Under the pieces are notes generated by a model. The model did not search any database, was not told the DNA's origin, and saw only the letters and a list, made by a program, of their open reading frames with translations. Shown one piece after another: positions 21,163 to 33,596 of a DNA stretch of 64,000 nucleotides (positions within the stretch are counted from its first letter, which is position 1; the number at the start of each line of letters is the position of its first letter). Source of the stretch: an uncultured Oscillospiraceae bacterium (GTDB lineage: Bacteria; Bacillota; Clostridia; Acetivibrionales; DTU013). Where the stretch lies: NCBI GenBank assembly GCA_964587755.1, contig CAZPMC010000005.1, positions 2,486 to 66,485 of the forward strand. The letters are read 5' to 3'. The position numbers and the translations under genes are program-made.

Positions 21163-22338
21163 GTGTTGAAAAAACCCTGCATTACCTATGGAAGACTGCT
21201 AAGATATTGTGCCGTATTATTGTTTTTTATCTTTGTCGCCGTATTATTACCGGCGGAGTCTTTTGCAGAATATTCTGATACAATTGTAATAAAGATCGGA
21301 AGCCGTTTTATGACTGTAAACGGTATAGACAAAGAGATCGACCCGGGCAGGGGGACTGTCAGTGTTCTCGAAAGCGGCAGAACGTTGGTGCCCATAAGAG
21401 CTATAGCTGAAGAAATGGGCGGAATTGTTAGCTGGGACCCAAAGTATTCTCGTGTTGACATTATGCTTGACGATATTCATTTAAAACTTTGGATAAATCA
21501 GACCCTTACAATGGTAAACGGCAATGTGGAAATTATGGATGTTGCTGCAAGGATGGAGAACTTCAGGACATTAGTGCCTTTGAGATTTGTTGCAGAAAAT
21601 ATGGGGGCGCAAGTTAGTTGGAACGGCAAAACATCCGAGGCTGTAATTAAATTCAACAAAAAGCCGATACCTGTACCCAATCAGCCTCAATTTAGTATCA
21701 TTGATAGATTTGATGAGCTAGAAGGAAACGCCGGCAGAGTAGCGTTTGAAATTGATTCTTCTCAGATGATCGGAGAATATTCAGGATTTAAGCTGTATTT
21801 TACCAATGACCAGGGGCAGCAGGACTGTTTGTTTATTGATACTACTGATGGTACCAACGGATTTTATTGTTCGGATACCATAGGAAAAACTGTTGATATA
21901 GCTGTGACGGCTGTAAACAGAACGGTTGAAAGCCCTCCGCAGCAAATTAAATTTGCAATGCTTGGGAAAGTTAATTTTGATAAGATATGGTCTGAAAGGA
22001 AGATATATAATCTGGAGGGTGCGCCGAGCTGGTATGGAATATCATGGCTGCCTGTACCCGGTGCGGCAAAATACAAGGTATACATATCCAATAATGCATC
22101 GGATTGGCAGGATTTTAAAAGCACGGGGAACCTTTCTAAATTTCATGATATTATAGTCTCTGACACATATATCAGCACCAAGGAGAATTTAGACTTGCCT
22201 CAGGAGTTGATAACAACCGCTTTAGGAGAGTATAGATATATAGTAATATTCCCGGTGAATGATGAGGGAATACCTGGATTGATACCTGCTTCTTATGAGA
22301 TGCTTATTTCAGGAGAGACAATTAAGGTGGAAAATTAA
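21163..22338 (+). CDS. Secreted protein with two copper-amine-oxidase N-terminal (stalk) repeats and a C-terminal Fn3-like domain
   Basis: Signal peptide. Two repeats of the form NG...RTLVPIRAIAEEMGG.VSWD. GTG (21163) or TTG (21166) start after GGGAGGG. Confidence 0.7.
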   Translation: MLKKPCITYGRLLRYCAVLLFFIFVAVLLPAESFAEYSDTIVIKIGSRFMTVNGIDKEIDPGRGTVSVLESGRTLVPIRAIAEEMGGIVSWDPKYSRVDIMLDDIHLKLWINQTLTMVNGNVEIMDVAARMENFRTLVPLRFVAENMGAQVSWNGKTSEAVIKFNKKPIPVPNQPQFSIIDRFDELEGNAGRVAFEIDSSQMIGEYSGFKLYFTNDQGQQDCLFIDTTDGTNGFYCSDTIGKTVDIAVTAVNRTVESPPQQIKFAMLGKVNFDKIWSERKIYNLEGAPSWYGISWLPVPGAAKYKVYISNNASDWQDFKSTGNLSKFHDIIVSDTYISTKENLDLPQELITTALGEYRYIVIFPVNDEGIPGLIPASYEMLISGETIKVEN

Positions 22339-24722: not shown

Positions 24723-24820
24723 TTATCAAATAAAGAGATAATAAACATTGTTATGGAATGAAACAATATAGATGGACAATCGTATATAATAGTGAGTATG
24801 AAAACAAGGAGACAGTTGAT

Positions 24821-25756
24821 ATGAATAACGAGGAGTTGTGGGAACTAAAAAAAAGACTTGCTGATTTACCAGTCCTGCAAATGCGTCTAGACAAGCTGCA
24901 AAGCCGGATAAAAGAATCTGAAGAAGAAATAAAATCACTTCTTGCAAAATATGAATCTGAAGCTTTTGATGTAGAAAGGCTTAGAAATGAATCATTATCT
25001 GTGTTTATTTTGAAAACCATAGGAAGGTTTGATAGGAAGCTAGACAAAGAGACACAGGAGATGTTGAAGGCAAAAGCAGAATACGATAAGGCAGAAGAGA
25101 ACTTAAGACAGTTAAAAATAAAAAAAGATGAGCTAATCAAGAGGCTTGGTGAACTAAATTATGACAGCATGAGGTTTGCAAACGAGTTAGAAAGAAGAGA
25201 GGAAGAAATCAGAAGGGACCTGTCAAGTGAAAAGTCAATTAAATACAGGGAGCTTACGAATGAAGAGGATTTGCTTTCAGCTCAGCTTGTCGAAACCCGA
25301 GAGGCTTTGCGTGCAGCTAATGTTGTACTTAAAACAATAGATGATGCAGCTAAATACCTGGAAAGTGCAGAAAACTGGGCTACCTACGATATTTGGTTTA
25401 AAAGCGGTATATTAAGCCACATGGCAAAATACGATAAAATTGATAAAGCGGAGGAGGCCTTCAATAGATTATCTTCTCAAATAAAAGAGTTGAATAGAGA
25501 GCTGTCAGATATAAGCACAATACAAAATCTTTCTTTCTCAGGTGTCGATTCCACAACAAGAGCAATTGATTTTTGGTTTGATAATATATTTACCGATTTA
25601 AATGTCCGGGACAGGATACGAAACGATGCACAACAGCTTAAAAAGCTTCGCAGCCAAATTAACGGCGTTATTTCAAGACTTAAGCGGAACATATCAAGCA
25701 TTGAAGGAAGAAAAAAAGGAATCGGACAGGAAAAGACTAATCTTATTATAAAATAG
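24821..25756 (+). CDS. Coiled-coil protein of unknown function
   Basis: Start set at the ATG at 24821 (AAGGAGA 7 nt upstream); the track's earlier start has no RBS. Heptad-rich and charged throughout, with no TM and no signal peptide. Confidence 0.6.
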   Translation: MNNEELWELKKRLADLPVLQMRLDKLQSRIKESEEEIKSLLAKYESEAFDVERLRNESLSVFILKTIGRFDRKLDKETQEMLKAKAEYDKAEENLRQLKIKKDELIKRLGELNYDSMRFANELERREEEIRRDLSSEKSIKYRELTNEEDLLSAQLVETREALRAANVVLKTIDDAAKYLESAENWATYDIWFKSGILSHMAKYDKIDKAEEAFNRLSSQIKELNRELSDISTIQNLSFSGVDSTTRAIDFWFDNIFTDLNVRDRIRNDAQQLKKLRSQINGVISRLKRNISSIEGRKKGIGQEKTNLIIK

Positions 25757-25783
25757 AGGGAACGGTATGAACGTCCCCTCTAT
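25753..25783. terminator. Bidirectional hairpin between convergent genes
   Basis: ATAGAGGGAACG pairs with ACGTCCCCTCTAT with one mismatch or bulge. It lies between the stops at 25756 (+) and 25801 (-). Confidence 0.55.
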
Positions 25784-25800
25784 ATTATAGATGTGAAATT

Positions 25801-28800
25801 TTAGCGAAGAATCTTAAGGGCTATATACGCAAGATCTTCAATGTTAATTATTCCGTCATTGTTGAAATCCATAGCTTGGACTTCCGGCCAGCATTCGTCA
25901 GATGATGTTTTACCATAGTTGTAAGCTACCATTGCAAGATCACCGATATCTATGCGACCGCTATTGTTTACATCTCCGACTTCGTGGGTACGAACCTTTT
26001 CTATGAAGGCTGCTAAAGCGTCATTTAATTCAGATAAGGCCTGGTCAACCTGTACCTGGGTAGCACTCTCGTCATCATAGACTGCAATTGCTGCGTCTAT
26101 GGCTGTCTGAAGAACAGCCTTTGAGCCAGTTGGGTACTGTCCGGCTTTATCGCCCTCTACAGCTTCATCATGGACATTCTGCGCTTCGGTAATCGCAGCA
26201 GATAAAGCAGTTTTGTCAGCCGGAGGAAGTCCGATACTTATCTCCTTGGTGTCATTGCCGATTGCCACAACTGTCCCGTCTCTGGTGCCAAGCAAGGCAG
26301 AAGTCACACTGACAATACCTGATGTATCATAAACCCCATCAACAGCTTTGAAGTCCAGTAAAAGCAGCGGAGTATTTTCTCCTGTTAGCCCTTCGGTTGT
26401 AGCGCTGATTACCCGTACAGCTCCTGTTTCCGATGTGTCAACCTCCAGTACCATTACAGCATCTGTGTCTTTTGCATTAACGCCTATGAGCTCAAACTTC
26501 TCATCATCAAAACCTATGATAATATCTTGAGCGTAAATATCCTGTGCTATATTTGCTAAGTCAATACCTAATGAAAATGTATCCGATGGTTTTACTGAAG
26601 ACGCACCTGTAATGACTGCTGTGGCTTCTACCCCTTGTATTTTTAGAGTGTAGGAATCTGTTGCAAGAATATCACCATCGCTGTTCTTCATATTGACTGT
26701 AACTATAGCCTCGCCGCTACCTGTAGCTTTGACGGTGGCGGTGCTGTTGATACGCTCATAGGAGATGCCGCCAATCTTACCGGGTCCTGTGTTATCTGTT
26801 TTTCCATCAGTAATATTAATAATTTCAGCCGGGCCTTGGACACTCCATTCATACGAAGCCGGAGCAGACCTGTCAGTAAAGTTAACATGGGGTTCGGCTG
26901 TAAGACTGGTTGTCTGGCCGACAGAAATTTTATCTTTCTGCCCCCTAATCTGTACAGTATGATTCAATGCGTTAATCCAGACTCTGAATGAATTACAGTT
27001 ATTGGCTGACCCGGTCATGCCCATATTTGATGGATTATTGCCTCTGTTGTTGCGGGTGTAATACGGAGTAAGCTGGATAGTCTGTGGAGTTAATCCGGCT
27101 CCATACAACGCCGTTCCTGTGATTTCGACTACCCCTCTTAAAAGGTCCGGCCTCCAGGTCGCAGTAAGCTCCATGTCTCTTGGAATAACGACTTGTCTTG
27201 CGTCCTTGCCGGAGGTCTCTGTGTCAGGAACTCCGGGAGTCTCCAGATTGTAAACTATAGGTCCTCTTTCGATGACAATCTTATTCCTCTGGCCGTAATC
27301 TGGATACTGAGAACCGTAATCTACATTATCATCGGCTTCAGTCAATCTAATTTCCATGGGCATATTGATATGGATGACACTGCCATCTTGAGGCCAGTTC
27401 CGGGTAATAGGAACATATCCCTTATCGTTTGGAGTAGCGTCAATTTCTTCGCCATCCACACTTATGGTAACCTGTTGGTACTTCTGAGCTTTGATCCAGC
27501 CGGGAATGCGTATATTTAACGTAAAGTCCTTTGCAGCAGCGGGTGTAACTGTCATTTTTACGTCCCCGTCCCAAGGATAGTTGGTTTCCTGTACAATCTC
27601 AACGTTAGATCCCTGTACATTTATATTGGCGGTGCTTCCGGCATACATATTAACAAAAATATTATCTTTATTGACCGTATACATATAACCGCCTATATTG
27701 GCAATTGTCCTCATAACGTTAGGCGGGCAGCAAGCACAGCCAAACCATGAGGAACGTGTCTTTGAACCTGAATCAAGTCCGCAGGAGTAGTAGAATAGTC
27801 CGCCGCTTAAGTTTACACCCACCAGCACTCCGTTATATAAAGCTCTTTCGTAGGAATCCACGTATTTGGCATCCTCATAGTAGAGGTTCAACCTTTGATA
27901 CCAGTTGGCGCCTGCTATAGCTGCACAGGTCTCGGTATAAGCGTTTGTGTTGCGAATTCTGTAGTCAGCACCGAAGCCTTCACTTGATTCACCGGAGCCT
28001 AAACCACCGGTAATATATGTGTTGCGTTCGGAAGCCCTGTCATATATACCTGATATAGCTTTAAGATAAGCTGCTTTGTCCGGGTTTGTATCATCGAGCC
28101 AAATCGCCACATCGGTTGCACCTGTGTAGTAATACATGGCCCTTACAGCATGGCCGACAGCATTAGTCTCGTTTACCAGAGGAGTCGCATCCTGTGAATA
28201 ACTGCTTCCGTTGTAGCCGCTCTCTCTTTCGTATTCGCCGGTTCTTCTGCCGCGCCTGTCAACAAGTACATAAGCTGTGTCTCTATATTTGTCACCGGTG
28301 CCGATGCCCTCGATTTCTTCAGTTAGATCAGCCCATTTCATGAGGGCAAGCTCGATTTCCTGGTGTCCTGGGACCTCAGTACGGTATCCATTGCGGCCAA
28401 ATGTATTTACAATATGATCCGCTGCTCTTTTGCCGACTTCGTAAATTCTGTAATCATATTGTTTGGTACCTATGGTGTAACGTGTGTAAGCAACCGCGGC
28501 CTCAAGGAAGTGGCCTATATTGTACATTTCGTGCCTGGCCATATATCTCCAGCGCCAGTCACCGGTGCCGGAGCCGCCGCTGCTGGTAGTCGAACGGTTA
28601 GAAAAACAAGAATTGATGTAACCATCTGCGTATTGGATTGCCTCTATATAACCGATCCATTCGTCGCATTTATTTTGAAGCTCTATTTTCCTGTCACTCA
28701 TTGTCGGGTCATCCCAAATAGCTGCTAAGTTGTAGGCAAATGCCTCGAATGTTTTATATATATCGGTATCCTGGAAGACATAACCACTGTAAGCACCTCT

Positions 28801-30474
28801 AGGTGGATTCATGTTGCCTGAATGGACTTGAGATAACCTGTTTGCAGCGTTTACGAAGTTCCTCTCGGCATAGGAGGCGGAACTGGCAAGCTGTGTCATT
28901 GCAGCGTCAAAGGTAGCACCTGCGTTAACTAACTGCTTTGGTTTCCAAAACACATCGTTAAATACAACATTCTCAGATGTAACGGAATGGTTATAGTCAA
29001 GGGCTTCTAATGGTGGATTAACCGTGATAATTGCCTTAACCGGCAAACCGGGAGCTCTGCTGCCATCGGCTGTGACCCCCGTTACTTCAAAGGAGGTGCC
29101 GATTTTATCATGGGCATAATCCGCTTCAGTGAAGCTGTCTGTATCCCATACAACCGGAACAAGACTTGATTCAAATACTTCTGCGAAGTTGTAGCTTCCT
29201 GCCGTATCTGGCGTGGGGGTATCAAACACAAGACCATCGACCACAACCCTCTTTGGCAGGATAGGCGGTTTGCCCGCTGCGGTGCCTGTAACGTAATCTT
29301 GTGCCTTTCTGAGCTTTATAATCAAGTCAAAGTAATTGGTTGCCTCAAGGCCTTTGCCGGGAGAGCTAATCTTTACAGAAAGCCTTGCCGAACCTTTTGT
29401 CACACCTTCTATAGTAACGGTACTGTCTGTGTCGGTTCCGACAATATTGGCGTTTTCGTTGTCAAGGCTCCATTCATAGGTTATGTCCGTCAAAGTGCCG
29501 GCGGTGACAGTTGTTGTATAAACCTGCTGTGTACCAACAGCAACCATGGATTCGCCTGCTATGCTCACGGAAATATTTTGCACATTTATATCCATGGTAG
29601 CCACTGCTTCCTGAACTCCGGAGTCATGTCTTGCGGTTACAGAAAGCTTTGCATCGCCTACGCTAACAGCCTCCACATCGACGGTTTTACCAGTATTATC
29701 GCCTACGATCCTGATATTTTCGTTATCGACATTCCATTCATATGTAACGCCTTCGATATTCGGGTAAAGGACATATGCAGTATAAGTATTAGTCTCACTA
29801 ACAACAGGCTGTGCCTTACCTCCAATACTCACTGAATGTAGGACTGGATCCCCGGTAGCGCCAAATATTTCCCATTCGCCTATACCGGCACCGGTAGAAC
29901 CGGAAGGTTTTGTGATACTTAAGCGTAATTGTGTGGTGACTATAGGATCGAAAGTCACACCGTTCCAAATCCTGTTAGTGCCGTTGGTGCCGCTGCCTTC
30001 AATACCTACAGACGTCACAGGTGTGCCTGAAGCATCCTTCATATTGGTAACGTTGACAAATGAAGAGCCGTCCCAATACTGAACTACTGCACTCTCAGGA
30101 AGTCTGACACCACCACCGTCATACCACCACATAACCCTTGTGGCGTCAATTGCCTGGGGCTGCTCCCAAGTACATTGCACCCAGACCGGGTTTTGGCTTG
30201 TGTTCCATGAGTTCCAGCCTTGACTCGGCGAGCTACCTGTAGCCAGAGAGCCGTTAATCATTCGGGCGCACTGTACATCAGGCGCGCCGTTTGTGTCATT
30301 GGAATAGCTGGCTGTTGCTGTAGCAGCCCGGGCGATATTGCCTTCTTCAAGACTAACTACATCCGTGCCTGTAGGAAGGCCTGCATAAGCAAACTGGGCT
30401 GACAACACACTAAACAGCAATACCAAGACCAGAGCCATTGATAGAGTTCTTTTTTTCATTACTCTTATGACCAT
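25801..30474 (-). CDS. Multimodular secreted GH127 (DUF1680, beta-L-arabinofuranosidase family) enzyme: discoidin/CBM32-like, 2x Big_2, GH127, Big_2, cohesin, FIVAR-like linker, dockerin
   Basis: Signal peptide MVIRVMKKRTLSMALVLVLLFSVLSAQFAYA; start set at the ATG at 30474, 10 nt after AGGAGG. F5/8-type-C-like module (...GAGIGEWEIFG). Big_2 repeats. GH127 core with HQEIELALMKW and the Cys-rich zinc site FGCACCPPNVMR. The cohesin and dockerin modules are listed separately. Confidence 0.85.
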   Translation of the reverse strand: MVIRVMKKRTLSMALVLVLLFSVLSAQFAYAGLPTGTDVVSLEEGNIARAATATASYSNDTNGAPDVQCARMINGSLATGSSPSQGWNSWNTSQNPVWVQCTWEQPQAIDATRVMWWYDGGGVRLPESAVVQYWDGSSFVNVTNMKDASGTPVTSVGIEGSGTNGTNRIWNGVTFDPIVTTQLRLSITKPSGSTGAGIGEWEIFGATGDPVLHSVSIGGKAQPVVSETNTYTAYVLYPNIEGVTYEWNVDNENIRIVGDNTGKTVDVEAVSVGDAKLSVTARHDSGVQEAVATMDINVQNISVSIAGESMVAVGTQQVYTTTVTAGTLTDITYEWSLDNENANIVGTDTDSTVTIEGVTKGSARLSVKISSPGKGLEATNYFDLIIKLRKAQDYVTGTAAGKPPILPKRVVVDGLVFDTPTPDTAGSYNFAEVFESSLVPVVWDTDSFTEADYAHDKIGTSFEVTGVTADGSRAPGLPVKAIITVNPPLEALDYNHSVTSENVVFNDVFWKPKQLVNAGATFDAAMTQLASSASYAERNFVNAANRLSQVHSGNMNPPRGAYSGYVFQDTDIYKTFEAFAYNLAAIWDDPTMSDRKIELQNKCDEWIGYIEAIQYADGYINSCFSNRSTTSSGGSGTGDWRWRYMARHEMYNIGHFLEAAVAYTRYTIGTKQYDYRIYEVGKRAADHIVNTFGRNGYRTEVPGHQEIELALMKWADLTEEIEGIGTGDKYRDTAYVLVDRRGRRTGEYERESGYNGSSYSQDATPLVNETNAVGHAVRAMYYYTGATDVAIWLDDTNPDKAAYLKAISGIYDRASERNTYITGGLGSGESSEGFGADYRIRNTNAYTETCAAIAGANWYQRLNLYYEDAKYVDSYERALYNGVLVGVNLSGGLFYYSCGLDSGSKTRSSWFGCACCPPNVMRTIANIGGYMYTVNKDNIFVNMYAGSTANINVQGSNVEIVQETNYPWDGDVKMTVTPAAAKDFTLNIRIPGWIKAQKYQQVTISVDGEEIDATPNDKGYVPITRNWPQDGSVIHINMPMEIRLTEADDNVDYGSQYPDYGQRNKIVIERGPIVYNLETPGVPDTETSGKDARQVVIPRDMELTATWRPDLLRGVVEITGTALYGAGLTPQTIQLTPYYTRNNRGNNPSNMGMTGSANNCNSFRVWINALNHTVQIRGQKDKISVGQTTSLTAEPHVNFTDRSAPASYEWSVQGPAEIINITDGKTDNTGPGKIGGISYERINSTATVKATGSGEAIVTVNMKNSDGDILATDSYTLKIQGVEATAVITGASSVKPSDTFSLGIDLANIAQDIYAQDIIIGFDDEKFELIGVNAKDTDAVMVLEVDTSETGAVRVISATTEGLTGENTPLLLLDFKAVDGVYDTSGIVSVTSALLGTRDGTVVAIGNDTKEISIGLPPADKTALSAAITEAQNVHDEAVEGDKAGQYPTGSKAVLQTAIDAAIAVYDDESATQVQVDQALSELNDALAAFIEKVRTHEVGDVNNSGRIDIGDLAMVAYNYGKTSSDECWPEVQAMDFNNDGIINIEDLAYIALKILR
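25804..25977 (-). other. Dockerin module (two F-hand Ca-binding repeats) at the C-terminus of the GH127 protein
   Basis: GDVNNSGRIDIGDLAMVA...MDFNNDGIINIEDLAYIALKIL: two DxNxDGxIxxxDL repeats. Confidence 0.85.
26230..26625 (-). other. Cohesin-like module inside the GH127 protein
   Basis: A 132-aa segment, ATAVITGASSVKPSDTFSLGIDLANIAQDIYAQDIIIGFDDEKFELIGV...LLLLDFKAVDG...SALLGTRDG, showing the typical cohesin beta-sandwich sequence pattern. Confidence 0.65.
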
Positions 30475-30765
30475 AAAATTTACACCTCCTGGTATGATTA
30501 TGAGCATCCACGGGTAGTTAATATAAATAGTGGAAAAATATGGAATGGTACTCAAAATTTATTATATGCAATTACATATAATTAAACAAGATTATTGCCC
30601 GAAAACAGGAAAAATCAAAGGTTTAATAATATTTTCCATGATATTACATGATTCCCTTCTTTACAAAATTTATCGGATATATTAATATGGTTGTAAAAAT
30701 GAGTAATATTTGATAATGTGGGTATATTTTTAAGCAGCGGCTTTGCTGACAGAGAGGGGAAAAGC

Positions 30766-31650
30766 ATGAGTGATATGACGCTACCGCATTTAATGGGTTG
30801 CGATGCTGCCTTTGAAGAGGCTGAAATTATCATTTTCGGCGCTGGATTTGACGGAACGGCATCTTTCAGACCTGGCTCCCGTTTTGGTCCACAGGCTGTT
30901 CGTTCTGAGTTCTACGGATTGGAGACATATTCGCCTGTATTGGACAGAGACATAACACAGCTTGATATATGTGATGCAGGTGATTTGGAGCTGACCTTTG
31001 GGGATACACACAAAGCACTGGAGCTTATCGGAAAAGCTGTCGGTGAAATAATCAATGCAGGTAAAAAACCGTTTATGATAGGCGGAGAGCACCTTATCAC
31101 ATTGCCGGCTTTTAAAGCTGCGTTTCAAAGGTATCCTGACATACATTTGATACATATTGATGCTCATACAGATCTTAGAGACGAGTATTCAGGGCAGCAG
31201 CTATCACATGCAAGCGTGGTTCGCAGGATTTGGGAGATTACAGGTGACAGATGCATTTGGCAGCTGGGCATACGAAGCGGACTAAAGGAGGAATTTGACT
31301 GGGCGAAGGAAGGTCATACATATATGAGGCCCTTTGATCTGTCGCAGGCAAAGGAAGCTGCCCAATCAATCGGCGATAAGCCGGTATACCTTACGGTGGA
31401 CCTGGATATACTGGATCCTTCAGTTCTGCCGGGTACAGGAACTCCTGAACCCGGGGGTGTTTCATTTACTGAACTGATGGCAGCTCTTTATTGCTTCAGA
31501 GGAATGAACATAGTTGCGGCAGATATGGTGGAGCTATCTCCTATGCTGGATTATTCGGGGATTTCTACAGCAGCGGCATGTAAGACTATGAGGGAAATGC
31601 TGCTTTTAATAGGAACTATCAAAAAACAGGAGGATTATAAAGAATGGTAA
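30766..31650 (+). CDS. speB: Agmatinase
   Basis: Closely resembles B. subtilis SpeB by eye (SFRPGSRFGP, GGEHLITLP, IDAHTDLR, TVDLDILDP, PGTGTPEPGG). Start set at the ATG at 30766 (GAGAGGGGA upstream). Confidence 0.9.
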   Translation: MSDMTLPHLMGCDAAFEEAEIIIFGAGFDGTASFRPGSRFGPQAVRSEFYGLETYSPVLDRDITQLDICDAGDLELTFGDTHKALELIGKAVGEIINAGKKPFMIGGEHLITLPAFKAAFQRYPDIHLIHIDAHTDLRDEYSGQQLSHASVVRRIWEITGDRCIWQLGIRSGLKEEFDWAKEGHTYMRPFDLSQAKEAAQSIGDKPVYLTVDLDILDPSVLPGTGTPEPGGVSFTELMAALYCFRGMNIVAADMVELSPMLDYSGISTAAACKTMREMLLLIGTIKKQEDYKEW

Positions 31651-33596
31651 GCAAAACAAAAAGTGCTGATTTGAAAAAAGTGAGGATTTACGATGGCATA
31701 TGGAAGAAATATACGGATTTGGTGCGGAACACAGTAATACCGTACCAGTGGGAAGCACTTAACGACAGGGTTGACGATGCAGAACCAAGCCATTCCATAA
31801 AGAATTTCCGCATTGCAGCAGGCGAGGAAAAAGGAGAGTTCGGCGGTTGGGTATTTCAGGATAGTGACCCTGCAAAGTGGCTTGAAGCAGTGGGGTACTC
31901 CCTGGCTGTTTCCCCGGATCCTGAACTTATGAAAAATGCCGATGAGCTTATTGATTTAATAGGAAGAGCCCAGCAGCCTGATGGGTATTTGAATACATAT
32001 TTTATAATAAAAGAGCCTGATAAGAGATGGAGTAACCTTACGGACTGCCATGAGCTTTATTCCGCAGGGCACCTGATTGAAGCTGCAGTAGCTTATTATG
32101 AGGGGACAGGTAAAAGAAAATTCCTTGATATAATGTGCCGCTATGCTGATTATATTGACACAGTATTCGGCCGCGAACCTGGTAAGCTTAAAGGATACGG
32201 CGGTCATGAGGAAATTGAACTGGCACTGGTCAGACTATATAAAGCTACGAATAATGAGAAATACTTGAAGCTTGCTTCTTACTTTGTAGATGAACGCGGA
32301 CAGGAGCCTAATTATTTTCGTAAGGAATGGGAAAGTAGGGGCAAAACATCATTTTGGCAGCCAAAACAGGAAACAAAGCTGGATCTTGAGTACTGTCAGG
32401 CTCATGTCCCGGTCCGCCAGCAAAAAGAGGCGGTGGGACATGCAGTAAGAGCTGTATATCTTTACTCTGCAATGGCGGATCTTGCGGCTGAAAATAATGA
32501 TGCCCAGCTTTTTTCTGTGTGCAAGACTCTTTGGGAAAACATTGCAACTAAGCAGATGTATATAACCGGGGGAATTGGCTCCACCCGGCACGGAGAGGCG
32601 TTTTCTTATAATTATAATTTGCCTAACGATACTGCATACCAGGAAACTTGCGCATCTATAGGATTGATATTTTTTGCGCACAGGATGCTTAAATTGGAAG
32701 TTGATAGCTGCTACGCAGATGTAATGGAGAGGTCCTTGTACAATTCAACAATAAGCGGGATGTCACAAGACGGAAAGAGCTTTTTCTATGTAAATCCTTT
32801 GGAGGCAGATCCTGTGGCATCGGTAAAGGAGCCTGGTAAAACACACGTTAAGGTTCAAAGACAGAAATGGTATGGCTGTGCCTGCTGTCCGCCGAACCTT
32901 GCCAGATTGATTATGTCTTTGGGCAGCTATATTTATACAAGTGATGACAAAAATGTATACACTCATCTGTACATTGACGGGGAGGCTGAGCTTGAGGTAC
33001 GCTCAGGCAAGGTCGTAATTGAGCAGAAAACAAATTATCCTTGGACAGAAGACATATTACTTAAGTTTAAAGAGGTACCGGAAGGAGAATTCGGGCTTGG
33101 CTTAAGGATTCCCGGCTGGTGCCGTAAGGCCGAGATTAAGGTGAATGGAGAAAATATTGATATAAGCAAGATAGTGAATAAAGGCTATGCCGTTATTAAA
33201 AGGGCATGGAAGGTGGATGATTTAGTAGAGCTGAACCTTGAAATGCCTGTAGAGCTGATTGATGCCAATCCCAATGTCCATTATAATGCAGGAAAAGTAG
33301 CTATACAGAGAGGACCTGTAGTATATTGCCTTGAAGAGGAGGATAACGGCAAAAACCTGTCATCTATTGAAATAGACAGCACTAGCCGGTTTGATACAGA
33401 GTATGATAACAACTTCTTCGGAGGTGCTGTTATAATAAAGGGTACTGCATTTCGTGATAGCGTATCCGGTTGGGATGGACAGTTGTACCGGCCTCATAAA
33501 AGAAAGACAGACTCTTTTACCTTCAAAGCCATACCCTATTATTTATGGGCAAACAGGGGGCCTGGTGAAATGCAGGTTTGGACAAGATGCAAATAA
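31644..33596 (+). CDS. GH127 family glycoside hydrolase (HypBA1-like beta-L-arabinofuranosidase family), intracellular
   Basis: No signal peptide. HEEIELALVRLY, GHAVRAVYLY and YGCACCPPNLARL motifs. The start overlaps the speB stop (ATGGTAA). Confidence 0.85.
   Translation: MVSKTKSADLKKVRIYDGIWKKYTDLVRNTVIPYQWEALNDRVDDAEPSHSIKNFRIAAGEEKGEFGGWVFQDSDPAKWLEAVGYSLAVSPDPELMKNADELIDLIGRAQQPDGYLNTYFIIKEPDKRWSNLTDCHELYSAGHLIEAAVAYYEGTGKRKFLDIMCRYADYIDTVFGREPGKLKGYGGHEEIELALVRLYKATNNEKYLKLASYFVDERGQEPNYFRKEWESRGKTSFWQPKQETKLDLEYCQAHVPVRQQKEAVGHAVRAVYLYSAMADLAAENNDAQLFSVCKTLWENIATKQMYITGGIGSTRHGEAFSYNYNLPNDTAYQETCASIGLIFFAHRMLKLEVDSCYADVMERSLYNSTISGMSQDGKSFFYVNPLEADPVASVKEPGKTHVKVQRQKWYGCACCPPNLARLIMSLGSYIYTSDDKNVYTHLYIDGEAELEVRSGKVVIEQKTNYPWTEDILLKFKEVPEGEFGLGLRIPGWCRKAEIKVNGENIDISKIVNKGYAVIKRAWKVDDLVELNLEMPVELIDANPNVHYNAGKVAIQRGPVVYCLEEEDNGKNLSSIEIDSTSRFDTEYDNNFFGGAVIIKGTAFRDSVSGWDGQLYRPHKRKTDSFTFKAIPYYLWANRGPGEMQVWTRCK

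Follow-up and report, generated by a model that had tools for sequence, protein, structure and literature searches.

Cohesin-dockerin pairs on catalytic enzymes

In the usual view of cohesin-dockerin systems, scaffoldins bear the sockets (cohesins) and enzymes bear the plugs (dockerins). Here we describe a gene encoding a secreted, multimodular glycoside hydrolase (GH) of family GH127 that is arranged otherwise, as are the enzymes that share with it a C-terminal cassette of cohesin, FIVAR and dockerin modules (Coh-FIVAR-Doc). The gene is located at 25801..30474 on the minus strand of a 64-kb stretch of contig CAZPMC010000005.1 of an uncultured Oscillospiraceae bacterium, the whole of which is called the window, and protein residues are numbered as amino acids (aa) of the 1557-aa GH127 product. 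The initial annotation of this DNA had presented an enzyme with both a cohesin and a dockerin as unusual. The combination is real, since PF00963, PF00404 and the GH127 families of Pfam all score on this one secreted protein, but dozens of unrelated carbohydrate-active enzymes (CAZymes) share the cassette, and the GH31 enzyme of Clostridium perfringens (CpGH31) and Amy4 of Ruminococcus bromii are precedents.

The nearest described modules are those of C. perfringens. Strain ATCC 13124 possesses five cohesin-bearing glycoside hydrolases, besides one GH31 enzyme with cohesin and dockerin (PMC12997984). The toxin-complex modules of the species are credited to Adams et al. 2008 through PMC12997984, and the cohesin of NagJ binds the FIVAR-Doc region of NagH (PDB 2OZN). 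NagJ (GH84C), NanJ (GH33) and NagH (mu-toxin) have modules of the same cohesin and FIVAR-dockerin class as those of the window GH127, and in both cases a single cohesin is found on a glycoside hydrolase, not on a scaffoldin, beside CBM32/F5/8 modules, putative in the window protein. Unlike these three proteins, the window protein fuses cohesin, FIVAR and dockerin contiguously at its C-terminus. Its dockerin also differs from that of NagH: the second repeat is more symmetric, and a conserved insert containing an invariant Trp separates it from the first. In place of C. perfringens the host is a Clostridia lineage that is uncultured, and the catalytic module belongs to GH127.

Both partners are likewise carried by one secreted catalytic polypeptide in Amy4, a GH13 amylase of the R. 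bromii amylosome, whose cohesin binds its own dockerin and those of other enzymes, making Amy4 an adaptor as well as an enzyme (PMC4611034). The two proteins differ in their cohesin and dockerin lineages, enzyme family and substrate, and in that Amy4 has no FIVAR; furthermore, binding was demonstrated for Amy4, whereas for the window GH127 it is a prediction. Cohesin and dockerin on the same chain also link components in monovalent adaptor scaffoldins (one cohesin plus one dockerin), a recognised class (PMC11557425), and in ScaA/CipV of A. cellulolyticus, which combines a GH9 with cohesins and a dockerin (PMC11557425, PMC12997984). Such proteins are built from type I/II modules, act within scaffoldin hierarchies and are mostly non-catalytic, whereas here the adaptor appears to have been added to many different enzymes.

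With regard to the catalytic part, the window GH127 resembles HypBA1 (Bll1HypBA1), the Geobacillus enzyme 4QJY and BT1003 (6EX6) in its three-domain GH127 body, its Cys3-Glu Zn site and its acid/base Glu motifs. HypBA1 has no added N- or C-terminal modules, and neither has a 650-aa GH127 encoded next to the window gene, which is also devoid of an N-terminal extension. Bll3HypBA1, a GH146 arabinofuranosidase of clan GH-P, is a cell-surface enzyme with a signal peptide, LamG, Ig-like modules and a transmembrane anchor (PMC10850190). The window GH127 is similarly predicted to be secreted and multimodular with Ig-like spacers, but Bll3HypBA1 is held by a transmembrane helix and not by cohesin or dockerin.

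In view of these systems, what is new here is a GH127 as the cargo of a C. perfringens-type cohesin/FIVAR-dockerin pair, the arrangement itself being already known. Modules of this type turn out to be routinely fused to single enzymes, well outside pathogens. Taken alone, the window offers mainly a well-annotated, somewhat unusual CAZyme, and the more interesting lead is the cassette-anchor system of Paenibacillus described below.

Cohesin, FIVAR and dockerin modules of the GH127 protein

A segment that the initial annotation had called cohesin-like is a cohesin by both profile and fold, and it thereby withstands the refutation that the annotation had specified. The module covers aa 1284-1417 (26224..26625, minus strand), and in a scan of the isolated residues 1284-1421 PF00963 scored 36.7 bits (cutoff 24.1), spanning profile positions 2-136 of 139. 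A hmmscan of the whole protein (1557 aa, E<=1) did not report the cohesin, and the orthologue P0001 has a precomputed PF00963 match. Long multimodular proteins can evidently hide modules, given that this one surfaced only from the isolated segment. The cassette (aa 1284-1557) was modelled with AlphaFold2 (AF2) from a five-sequence alignment, A1, with a mean predicted local distance difference test score (pLDDT) of 91 and a predicted template modelling score (pTM) of 0.62, and the model consists of an all-beta module followed by three helices and then by the dockerin helices. In Foldseek comparisons with the Protein Data Bank (PDB), the cohesin matched those of NanJ (2VO8; template modelling score, TM, 0.89; root-mean-square deviation 1.7 A) and NagJ (2JH2; TM 0.84), in keeping with the nine-stranded jelly-roll beta-sandwich of cohesins, and cellulosomal cohesins gave TM values of 0.6-0.78.

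Sequence identity of the module to validated cohesins is low, at 18-24%, which, together with its absence from the whole-protein Pfam listing, might indicate a structural or carbohydrate-binding beta-sandwich that has lost dockerin binding. We regard such a loss as very improbable, in view of the isolated score above the Pfam cutoff across the full profile length, the TM of 0.89 to a C. perfringens cohesin and the fact that 72 or more protein clusters strictly couple the module with a dockerin.

The linker previously described as FIVAR-like is indeed a FIVAR, PF07554 (cutoff 29) scoring 36 bits at aa 1420-1489. The three-helix module occupies aa 1420-1495 (25990..26217, minus strand), in agreement with an alignment to NagH and with the AF2 model, where its helices are at cassette positions 142-157, 171-187 and 193-212. 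It is followed by the dockerin (aa 1500-1557; 25804..25977, minus strand), whose two calcium loops, DVNNSGRIDIGD and DFNNDGIINIED, bear out the two-repeat dockerin proposed initially. Dockerin_1 (PF00404, cutoff 23) was detected at aa 1500-1552, its score rising from 26 bits in the full-length scan to 33 bits when the segment was isolated. Each of the two repeats, of ~22 residues, consists of an EF-hand-like calcium loop (D-x-N-x-D/S-G-x-I-x-x-x-D) and then a helix, and both helices are seen in the AF2 model.

When the cassette profile was compared with all PDB entries, the FIVAR-Doc of NagH (mu-toxin; 2JNK/2OZN) was matched with an E value of 9e-28 (100 bits, positions 139-276), the NanJ cohesin 2VO8 with 3e-11 and the NagJ cohesin 2JH2 with ~2e-9, while cellulosomal dockerins appeared from 1e-7 and cellulosomal cohesins from 4e-3. 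Consistently, the FIVAR-Doc half of the model was placed by Foldseek on chain B of 2OZN, with a TM of 0.70 and 36% identity. At positions 10-11 the two dockerin loops have I-G and I-E, and the earlier remark that these recognition positions are not those of common clostridial type I dockerins proved correct, the nearest class being that of C. perfringens. A type I cellulosomal dockerin was discarded, as I-G/I-E is not a Ser-Thr pair and such dockerins match at E>=1e-7 versus 9e-28 for NagH. By profile and model comparison, the cohesin and the FIVAR-dockerin fall within the X82 / FIVAR-Doc class of C. perfringens and not within type I.

The least probable of the readings considered is that the protein is a classical cellulosome component, its dockerin docking in a multi-cohesin scaffoldin of cellulosome-producing Clostridia and its cohesin being a minor accessory. 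In its favour, the host is an anaerobic member of the Clostridia, whose pyruvate:ferredoxin oxidoreductase (PFOR) shares 75% identity with the one from Acetivibrio straminisolvens, a GH94 cellobiose phosphorylase gene is found near the GH127 gene, and the terms GH127 and dockerin appear together in papers about communities that degrade lignocellulose. Against it stand the better matches to C. perfringens modules (9e-28 and 3e-11, against ~1e-7 for cellulosomal dockerins and ~4e-3 for cellulosomal cohesins), the I-G/I-E recognition positions in place of the S-T of type I, the FIVAR before the dockerin and the lack of a scaffoldin in the window. A scaffoldin-based cellulosome locus was also rejected as such, with neither a multi-cohesin scaffoldin nor further dockerin enzymes in the 64 kb or beside the orthologues.

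The segment IDIGDLAMV of the first dockerin repeat is identical to that of NagH. Across cassettes (A1 plus 65 cassettes from the loci described below), the repeat 1 sequence (V/I)GDLA(I/M)VAYxYGK is almost invariant and its equivalents in repeat 2 vary. The inter-repeat Trp is invariant in the five A1 sequences, most of the 65 cassettes also have Trp at this position, and the insert is missing from the NagH dockerin. GC content and GC content at third codon positions (GC3), calculated by module, showed no mark of recent acquisition of the cassette.

The GH127 catalytic region

Three GH127 domains were identified between 27031 and 28971 on the minus strand by Pfam and PDB matches, namely the catalytic (aa 502-928), middle (aa 939-1040) and C-terminal (aa 1062-1148) domains, which scored 208 bits with PF07944, 87 bits with PF20736 and 32 bits with PF20737, respectively, in the whole protein, in line with the (alpha/alpha)6 catalytic domain and two beta-sandwich domains of the family. 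The two motifs listed for this region initially are both present, HQEIELAL at aa 703-710 and CACCPPN at aa 913-919. The closest solved relatives of the region are 4QJY, a Geobacillus beta-L-arabinofuranosidase (E 1.6e-95), and 6EX6, the aceric-acid hydrolase BT1003 of B. thetaiotaomicron (E 1.5e-94), with HypBA1 (3WKW) at E 4e-58. Motifs SSEGFG (acid/base Glu), ETCAA and WFGCACCPPN (Cys3-Glu Zn site and nucleophile) align with those of HypBA1, the Geobacillus enzyme and BT1003. In HypBA1 the zinc-binding and catalytic residues are E322, E338, C340, C417 and C418. As judged from these alignments, the three-domain GH127 body is complete with its Zn/Cys catalytic motifs, the role of whose residues in clan GH-P has been described (PMC10850190).

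Membership in the family suggests that the enzyme most probably has an activity of the beta-L-arabinofuranosidase type on plant glycans. Aceric acid hydrolase (NF049879, the BT1003 equivalog) was the best NCBIfam model, yet it was rejected, scoring 276.5 bits where the cutoff is 950. Since this score is far under the cutoff, no substrate specificity was assigned.

A recurrent and exchangeable C-terminal cassette

A word-indexed search with the cassette returned two matches, and the census was taken with HMMER, the profile of the cassette being run exhaustively over 1.84 billion cluster representatives. At E<=1e-3 it yielded 10,646 proteins, and at E<=1e-30 it yielded 852, a count that includes FIVAR-repeat proteins with no cohesin or dockerin; many of the top scorers are FIVAR-repeat proteins. 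Module hidden Markov models were run on a smaller set of 173 proteins, composed of the best 150 representatives and the GH127 and cassette homologues collected earlier. A contiguous Coh-FIVAR-Doc was found in 72 of the 173, each time at the extreme C-terminus, and in ~14 further proteins of the set two or three FIVARs separate cohesin from dockerin. The catalytic and accessory modules of the Pfam-scanned carriers are diverse (GH43+CBM6, GH27+NPCBM, GH10, GH43+AbfB, GH84+F5/8, PL8, GH3 and GH51), and a second GH127 lineage, of unrelated architecture, also bears the cassette. Some short proteins are mostly cassette, such as P0025 (401 aa), and P0036, a 677-aa protein of several Paenibacillus species including P. 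validus, has two cassettes in tandem.

Tandem cassettes or a Coh-FIVAR-Coh-FIVAR-Doc order were observed in P0036, P0063, P0104 and P0125, which are labelled at NCBI only as 'cohesin domain-containing protein'.

Among the homologues of the window GH127, Coh-FIVAR-Doc is retained in P0001 (89% identity) and P0009 (54%), while P0002 (84%) and P0004 (76%) have other beta-sandwich modules in its place, and P0012 has FIVAR repeats and a hydrophobic C-terminal segment, by eye a membrane anchor. As close homologues have different C-termini, the cassette is exchangeable and the conserved GH127 core does not depend on it. Together, the module scans indicate that the cassette is a recurrent, exchangeable C-terminal module.

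Cassette loci and wall anchors in Paenibacillus

The cassette alignment was scanned against one genome per species, which gave 75 cassette loci. Paenibacillus predominates, often with several loci per genome, the others being from metagenome-assembled genomes (MAGs) of Anaerovoracaceae and Clostridiaceae, from further Bacillota MAGs and from Thermobacillus, and the best identity of these loci to the window cassette is 45%. Cassette genes are frequently in tandem, three each in L001:2-11026, L016:1-11029 and L003:3584-12246 and four in L026/L029. The tandem clusters include small non-catalytic members. The one in L016 is a FIVAR-Coh-FIVAR-Doc protein of 654 aa, and the one in L003 has 458 aa, with Big_2 and the cassette.

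A small protein composed of a single cohesin and three SLH repeats is encoded between two hemicellulases that bear the cassette, a GH43+CBM6 and a GH30/59+GH43 enzyme, in five or more species of Paenibacillus (L006, L007, L009, L010, L035, L036, L038 and L039; e.g. L010:4048-5787, L038:10913-12124 and L036:11160-12995). By its domain content, this cohesin+3xSLH protein is a predicted wall anchor. The cohesins of the two flanking enzymes are 85-89% identical to one another, and in L043 FIVAR-Doc enzymes with no cohesin adjoin such anchors. The Coh-FIVAR-Doc cassette is widespread and, together with the cohesin+SLH anchors dedicated to it in Paenibacillus, apparently undescribed, no account of a cassette-and-anchor system having been found in the open-access literature, of which coverage was incomplete.

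A different, conserved protein of ~940 aa was observed in many Paenibacillus and Thermobacillus genomes (L049-L069; e.g. L049:7772-10591). It has an EstA_Ig_like N-terminal region and, as FIVAR is absent, only ~8 residues between its cohesin and the dockerin that follows, which makes it another and tighter fusion of the two.

Proposed role of the cassette

The reading that we favour, with moderate confidence, is that the window gene encodes an extracellular, zinc-dependent cysteine glycosidase of GH127, most probably an exo-enzyme of the beta-L-arabinofuranosidase type, joined to other proteins by its exchangeable cassette through cohesin-dockerin contacts in trans; the substrate, the binding itself and its trans mode are what we infer. 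The N-terminal discoidin-like binding module would target the enzyme, with the Ig-like modules acting as spacers, and the dockerin would plug into the cohesin of another protein, which may be an anchor or another cassette enzyme. The cohesin of the enzyme would in turn be a socket for a further dockerin, so that the enzyme could double as a monovalent adaptor, giving rise to small non-covalent enzyme chains and to holding at the cell surface with no multi-cohesin scaffoldin. An enzymatic adaptor was among the options offered by the initial annotation, and given the related loci, where cassette enzymes lie near cohesin+SLH anchors and dockerin-only enzymes, it is the one that fits best.

Binding in trans is favoured by the number of FIVARs between the partners, which varies from none to three across proteins and loci, by the existence of cassette-only (P0025) and double-cassette (P0036) proteins, and by cassette genes lying in tandem and adjoining cohesin+SLH anchors and dockerin-only enzymes. 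The same observations bear on an intramolecular fold-back, in which the dockerin would occupy the cohesin of its own chain and the C-terminus would be a closed knob, stabilised or auto-inhibited, and no device for assembly. The three modules invariably adjoin, the Coh-FIVAR linker (LPPA) is short, junction residues are confident in the AF2 model, with a moderate pTM for three modules, and the Coh-Doc pairs of other Paenibacillus proteins are only ~8 residues apart, all of which would suit a closed form; a variable number of FIVARs, however, speaks against a single fixed closed geometry, and a closed cassette would leave the cassette-only and double-cassette proteins with no obvious role. Fold-back is, in our judgement, improbable.

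Several results weigh against binding in trans to other proteins as proposed here. No second cohesin or dockerin is present anywhere in the 64-kb window, in which a scan for the dockerin-loop motif found only the two loops of the GH127, nor is there one around the orthologues P0001 and P0009. Anchor cohesins share no more than 20-24% identity with those of cassettes, so that either kind might be the socket preferred by the dockerin, and the association with anchors belongs to Paenibacillus and not to this Clostridia lineage. Covariation, calculated as mutual information with average product correction over 127 unique cassettes (effective number of sequences 100), was at chance for inter-module pairs of cohesin, FIVAR and dockerin columns, an analysis in which the FIVAR-Doc positive control was likewise not enriched and which speaks neither for nor against contacts in trans. 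As to the substrate, the best NCBIfam model, NF049879, scores far under its cutoff.

Lack of other cohesins and dockerins in the window and next to the orthologues would also be expected if the cassette served self-association only, the cohesin binding the dockerin of another copy to produce head-to-tail homopolymers or reciprocal dimers, as has been proposed for Amy4, with no heterologous partners. Cohesin and dockerin are inherited jointly as one cassette, and Amy4 provides a precedent (PMC4611034). In addition, median identity is 44% within a genome versus 30% between genomes for the cohesin, and 65% versus 53% for the dockerin, and the divergence of cohesins within genomes could mean private specificities, although this comparison is too equivocal to separate shared from private specificity. 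On the other hand, clustering with cohesin+SLH anchors and dockerin-only enzymes in Paenibacillus points to heterologous partners, and the 85-89% identity between cohesins of neighbouring cassette enzymes suggests a shared specificity, so we consider exclusive self-association unlikely, though not strikingly so.

Beyond the favoured reading of contacts in trans, a broader proposal can be put forward only tentatively. The cassette might be a self-complementary plug-and-socket by which dozens of secreted CAZymes of Paenibacillus and of several Clostridia lineages, each with one cassette, link head-to-tail in a scaffoldin-free manner, the Paenibacillus chains being wall-tethered by the cohesin+SLH anchor and the window GH127 being one link; we hold this to be possible, but with less than even confidence. 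If the cassette binds in trans, enzymes acting on plant glycans could assemble or be displayed at the surface with no scaffoldin, which, if true, would bear on how Bacillota of anaerobic digesters and soil attack arabinose-capped glycans (extensins, arabinogalactan proteins and pectic side chains). The compact cassette, of ~275 aa, might also serve as a tag to engineer enzyme chains.

N-terminal and spacer modules

The N-terminal region contains a putative F5/8 type C (discoidin / CBM32-like) beta-sandwich at aa 53-194 (29893..30318, minus strand). This module had been listed in the initial annotation, and the isolated segment does exceed the PF00754 cutoff (29.3 bits against 28.2), whereas the whole-protein scan gave 22.4 bits. 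AF2 confidence is mixed in this region, for which Foldseek matched the carbohydrate-binding module of BgaA (4CUB, TMt 0.60) and NCBIfam reported a local match to a HypBA2 region.

Two tandem Ig-like beta-sandwich modules follow at aa 208-300 and 301-391 (29302..29853, minus strand). In an AF2 model of aa 32-500 both are all-beta with pLDDT >90, and Foldseek with this model returned tandem-Ig matches that were generic only. A third Ig-like module, at aa 1163-1282 (26629..26988, minus strand), is placed between the GH127 region and the cohesin and was recognised by its sequence pattern only; it is kept among the homologues, and neither a profile comparison with the PDB nor Pfam gave a significant match to it. 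All three had been annotated as Big_2, an assignment that is not supported. The first module scored 15.1 bits with Big_2 (PF02368, cutoff 22.8) and 21.5 bits with PKD_6, no Big_2 match was obtained for the second and third in a Pfam scan of isolated segments, the whole-protein Pfam scan reported no Big_2, and none of the homologues examined had a precomputed PF02368. With profile scores under the threshold or absent, no significant PDB profile match for the third module and, for the first two, folds that AF2 and Foldseek recognise as Ig-like in general, the three spacers are only generically Ig-like and not demonstrably Big_2.

Most modules of the protein had been found initially, but one of ~100 aa was overlooked, at aa 396-495 (28990..29289, minus strand), between the second Ig-like module and the GH127 region. 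It is kept in all homologues and is modelled by AF2 as a mixed alpha/beta fold with pLDDT ~90; it appears Big_4-like by eye, a likeness with no profile support, as Pfam gave no match.

Gene boundaries and genomic surroundings

The reading frame on the minus strand is open over 25801..30555, counting from the earliest possible start, and the complete coding sequence (1557 aa plus stop) occupies 25801..30474, with the ATG at 30474 as the likely start. A ribosome-binding site, AGGAGG, is found at 30485..30490, 10 nt before the ATG (upstream sequence ...CCAGGAGGTGTAAATTTTATG), and further upstream are two sigma-70-like promoter matches of weak consensus only, at 30666-30638 and 30618-30591 (9/12 each, minus strand). 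Residues 1-31 (30382..30474, minus strand) form a predicted signal peptide, MVIRVMKKRTLSMALVLVLLFSVLSAQFAYA, with G as the first residue after the cleavage site, since inspection of the N-terminus reveals KKR, then a hydrophobic stretch and then AYA before that G, as in Sec signal peptides. An intrinsic terminator with a 12-bp stem and a T-run is located directly past the stop, at 25753..25783 (minus strand), between two convergent genes, and the GH127 gene looks monocistronic.

The NCBI protein P0321 is 100% identical to the product along all 1557 aa, including the N-terminus, which means that the same start was picked by independent gene calling, and the orthologue P0001, with 89% identity, is encoded on a syntenic metagenome contig. 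The segment 25801..30474 is a real gene.

The window is an ordinary Clostridia chromosome, with genes for FeoB, DUF1846, malic enzyme, an agmatinase-like protein, homoserine O-succinyltransferase, a GH94 phosphorylase and PFOR. The locus of P0001 is fully syntenic with it, and the P0009 orthologue is encoded amid housekeeping genes. Besides its 75% identity to A. straminisolvens, the PFOR is 91% identical to a sequence from the same Joint Genome Institute (JGI) contig and 81-84% to other metagenome sequences, one of them (81%) from a MAG named 'Clostridiaceae bacterium', similarities by which the host belongs among uncultured Clostridia.

The product of a gene at 21163-22338 (plus strand) has 391 aa, with a hydrophobic segment near its N-terminus, a Cu_amine_oxidN1 domain and an unassigned C-terminal part of ~230 aa. 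Cu_amine_oxidN1 is a wall-associated domain in some Clostridia, and this protein was considered as a cohesin anchor and rejected, having no cohesin signal. At 24758-25756 (plus strand), convergent with the GH127 gene and with the terminator region in common, there is a 332-aa Glu/Lys-rich open reading frame, coiled-coil-like by eye, with no Pfam match; the syntenic locus L076 has a counterpart of 311 aa in the same place, also with no Pfam match.

Divergent from the secreted GH127 gene, on the plus strand, is a gene of the arginase/agmatinase family (30718-31650), which overlaps by 7 nt the start of the gene for the 650-aa GH127 (31644-33596, plus strand), an enzyme with the motifs HEEIELAL and CACCPPN. 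As the latter has no added modules, a secreted and an apparently intracellular GH127 adjoin in this genome, and the pair of agmatinase-family and 650-aa GH127 genes is kept in L076.

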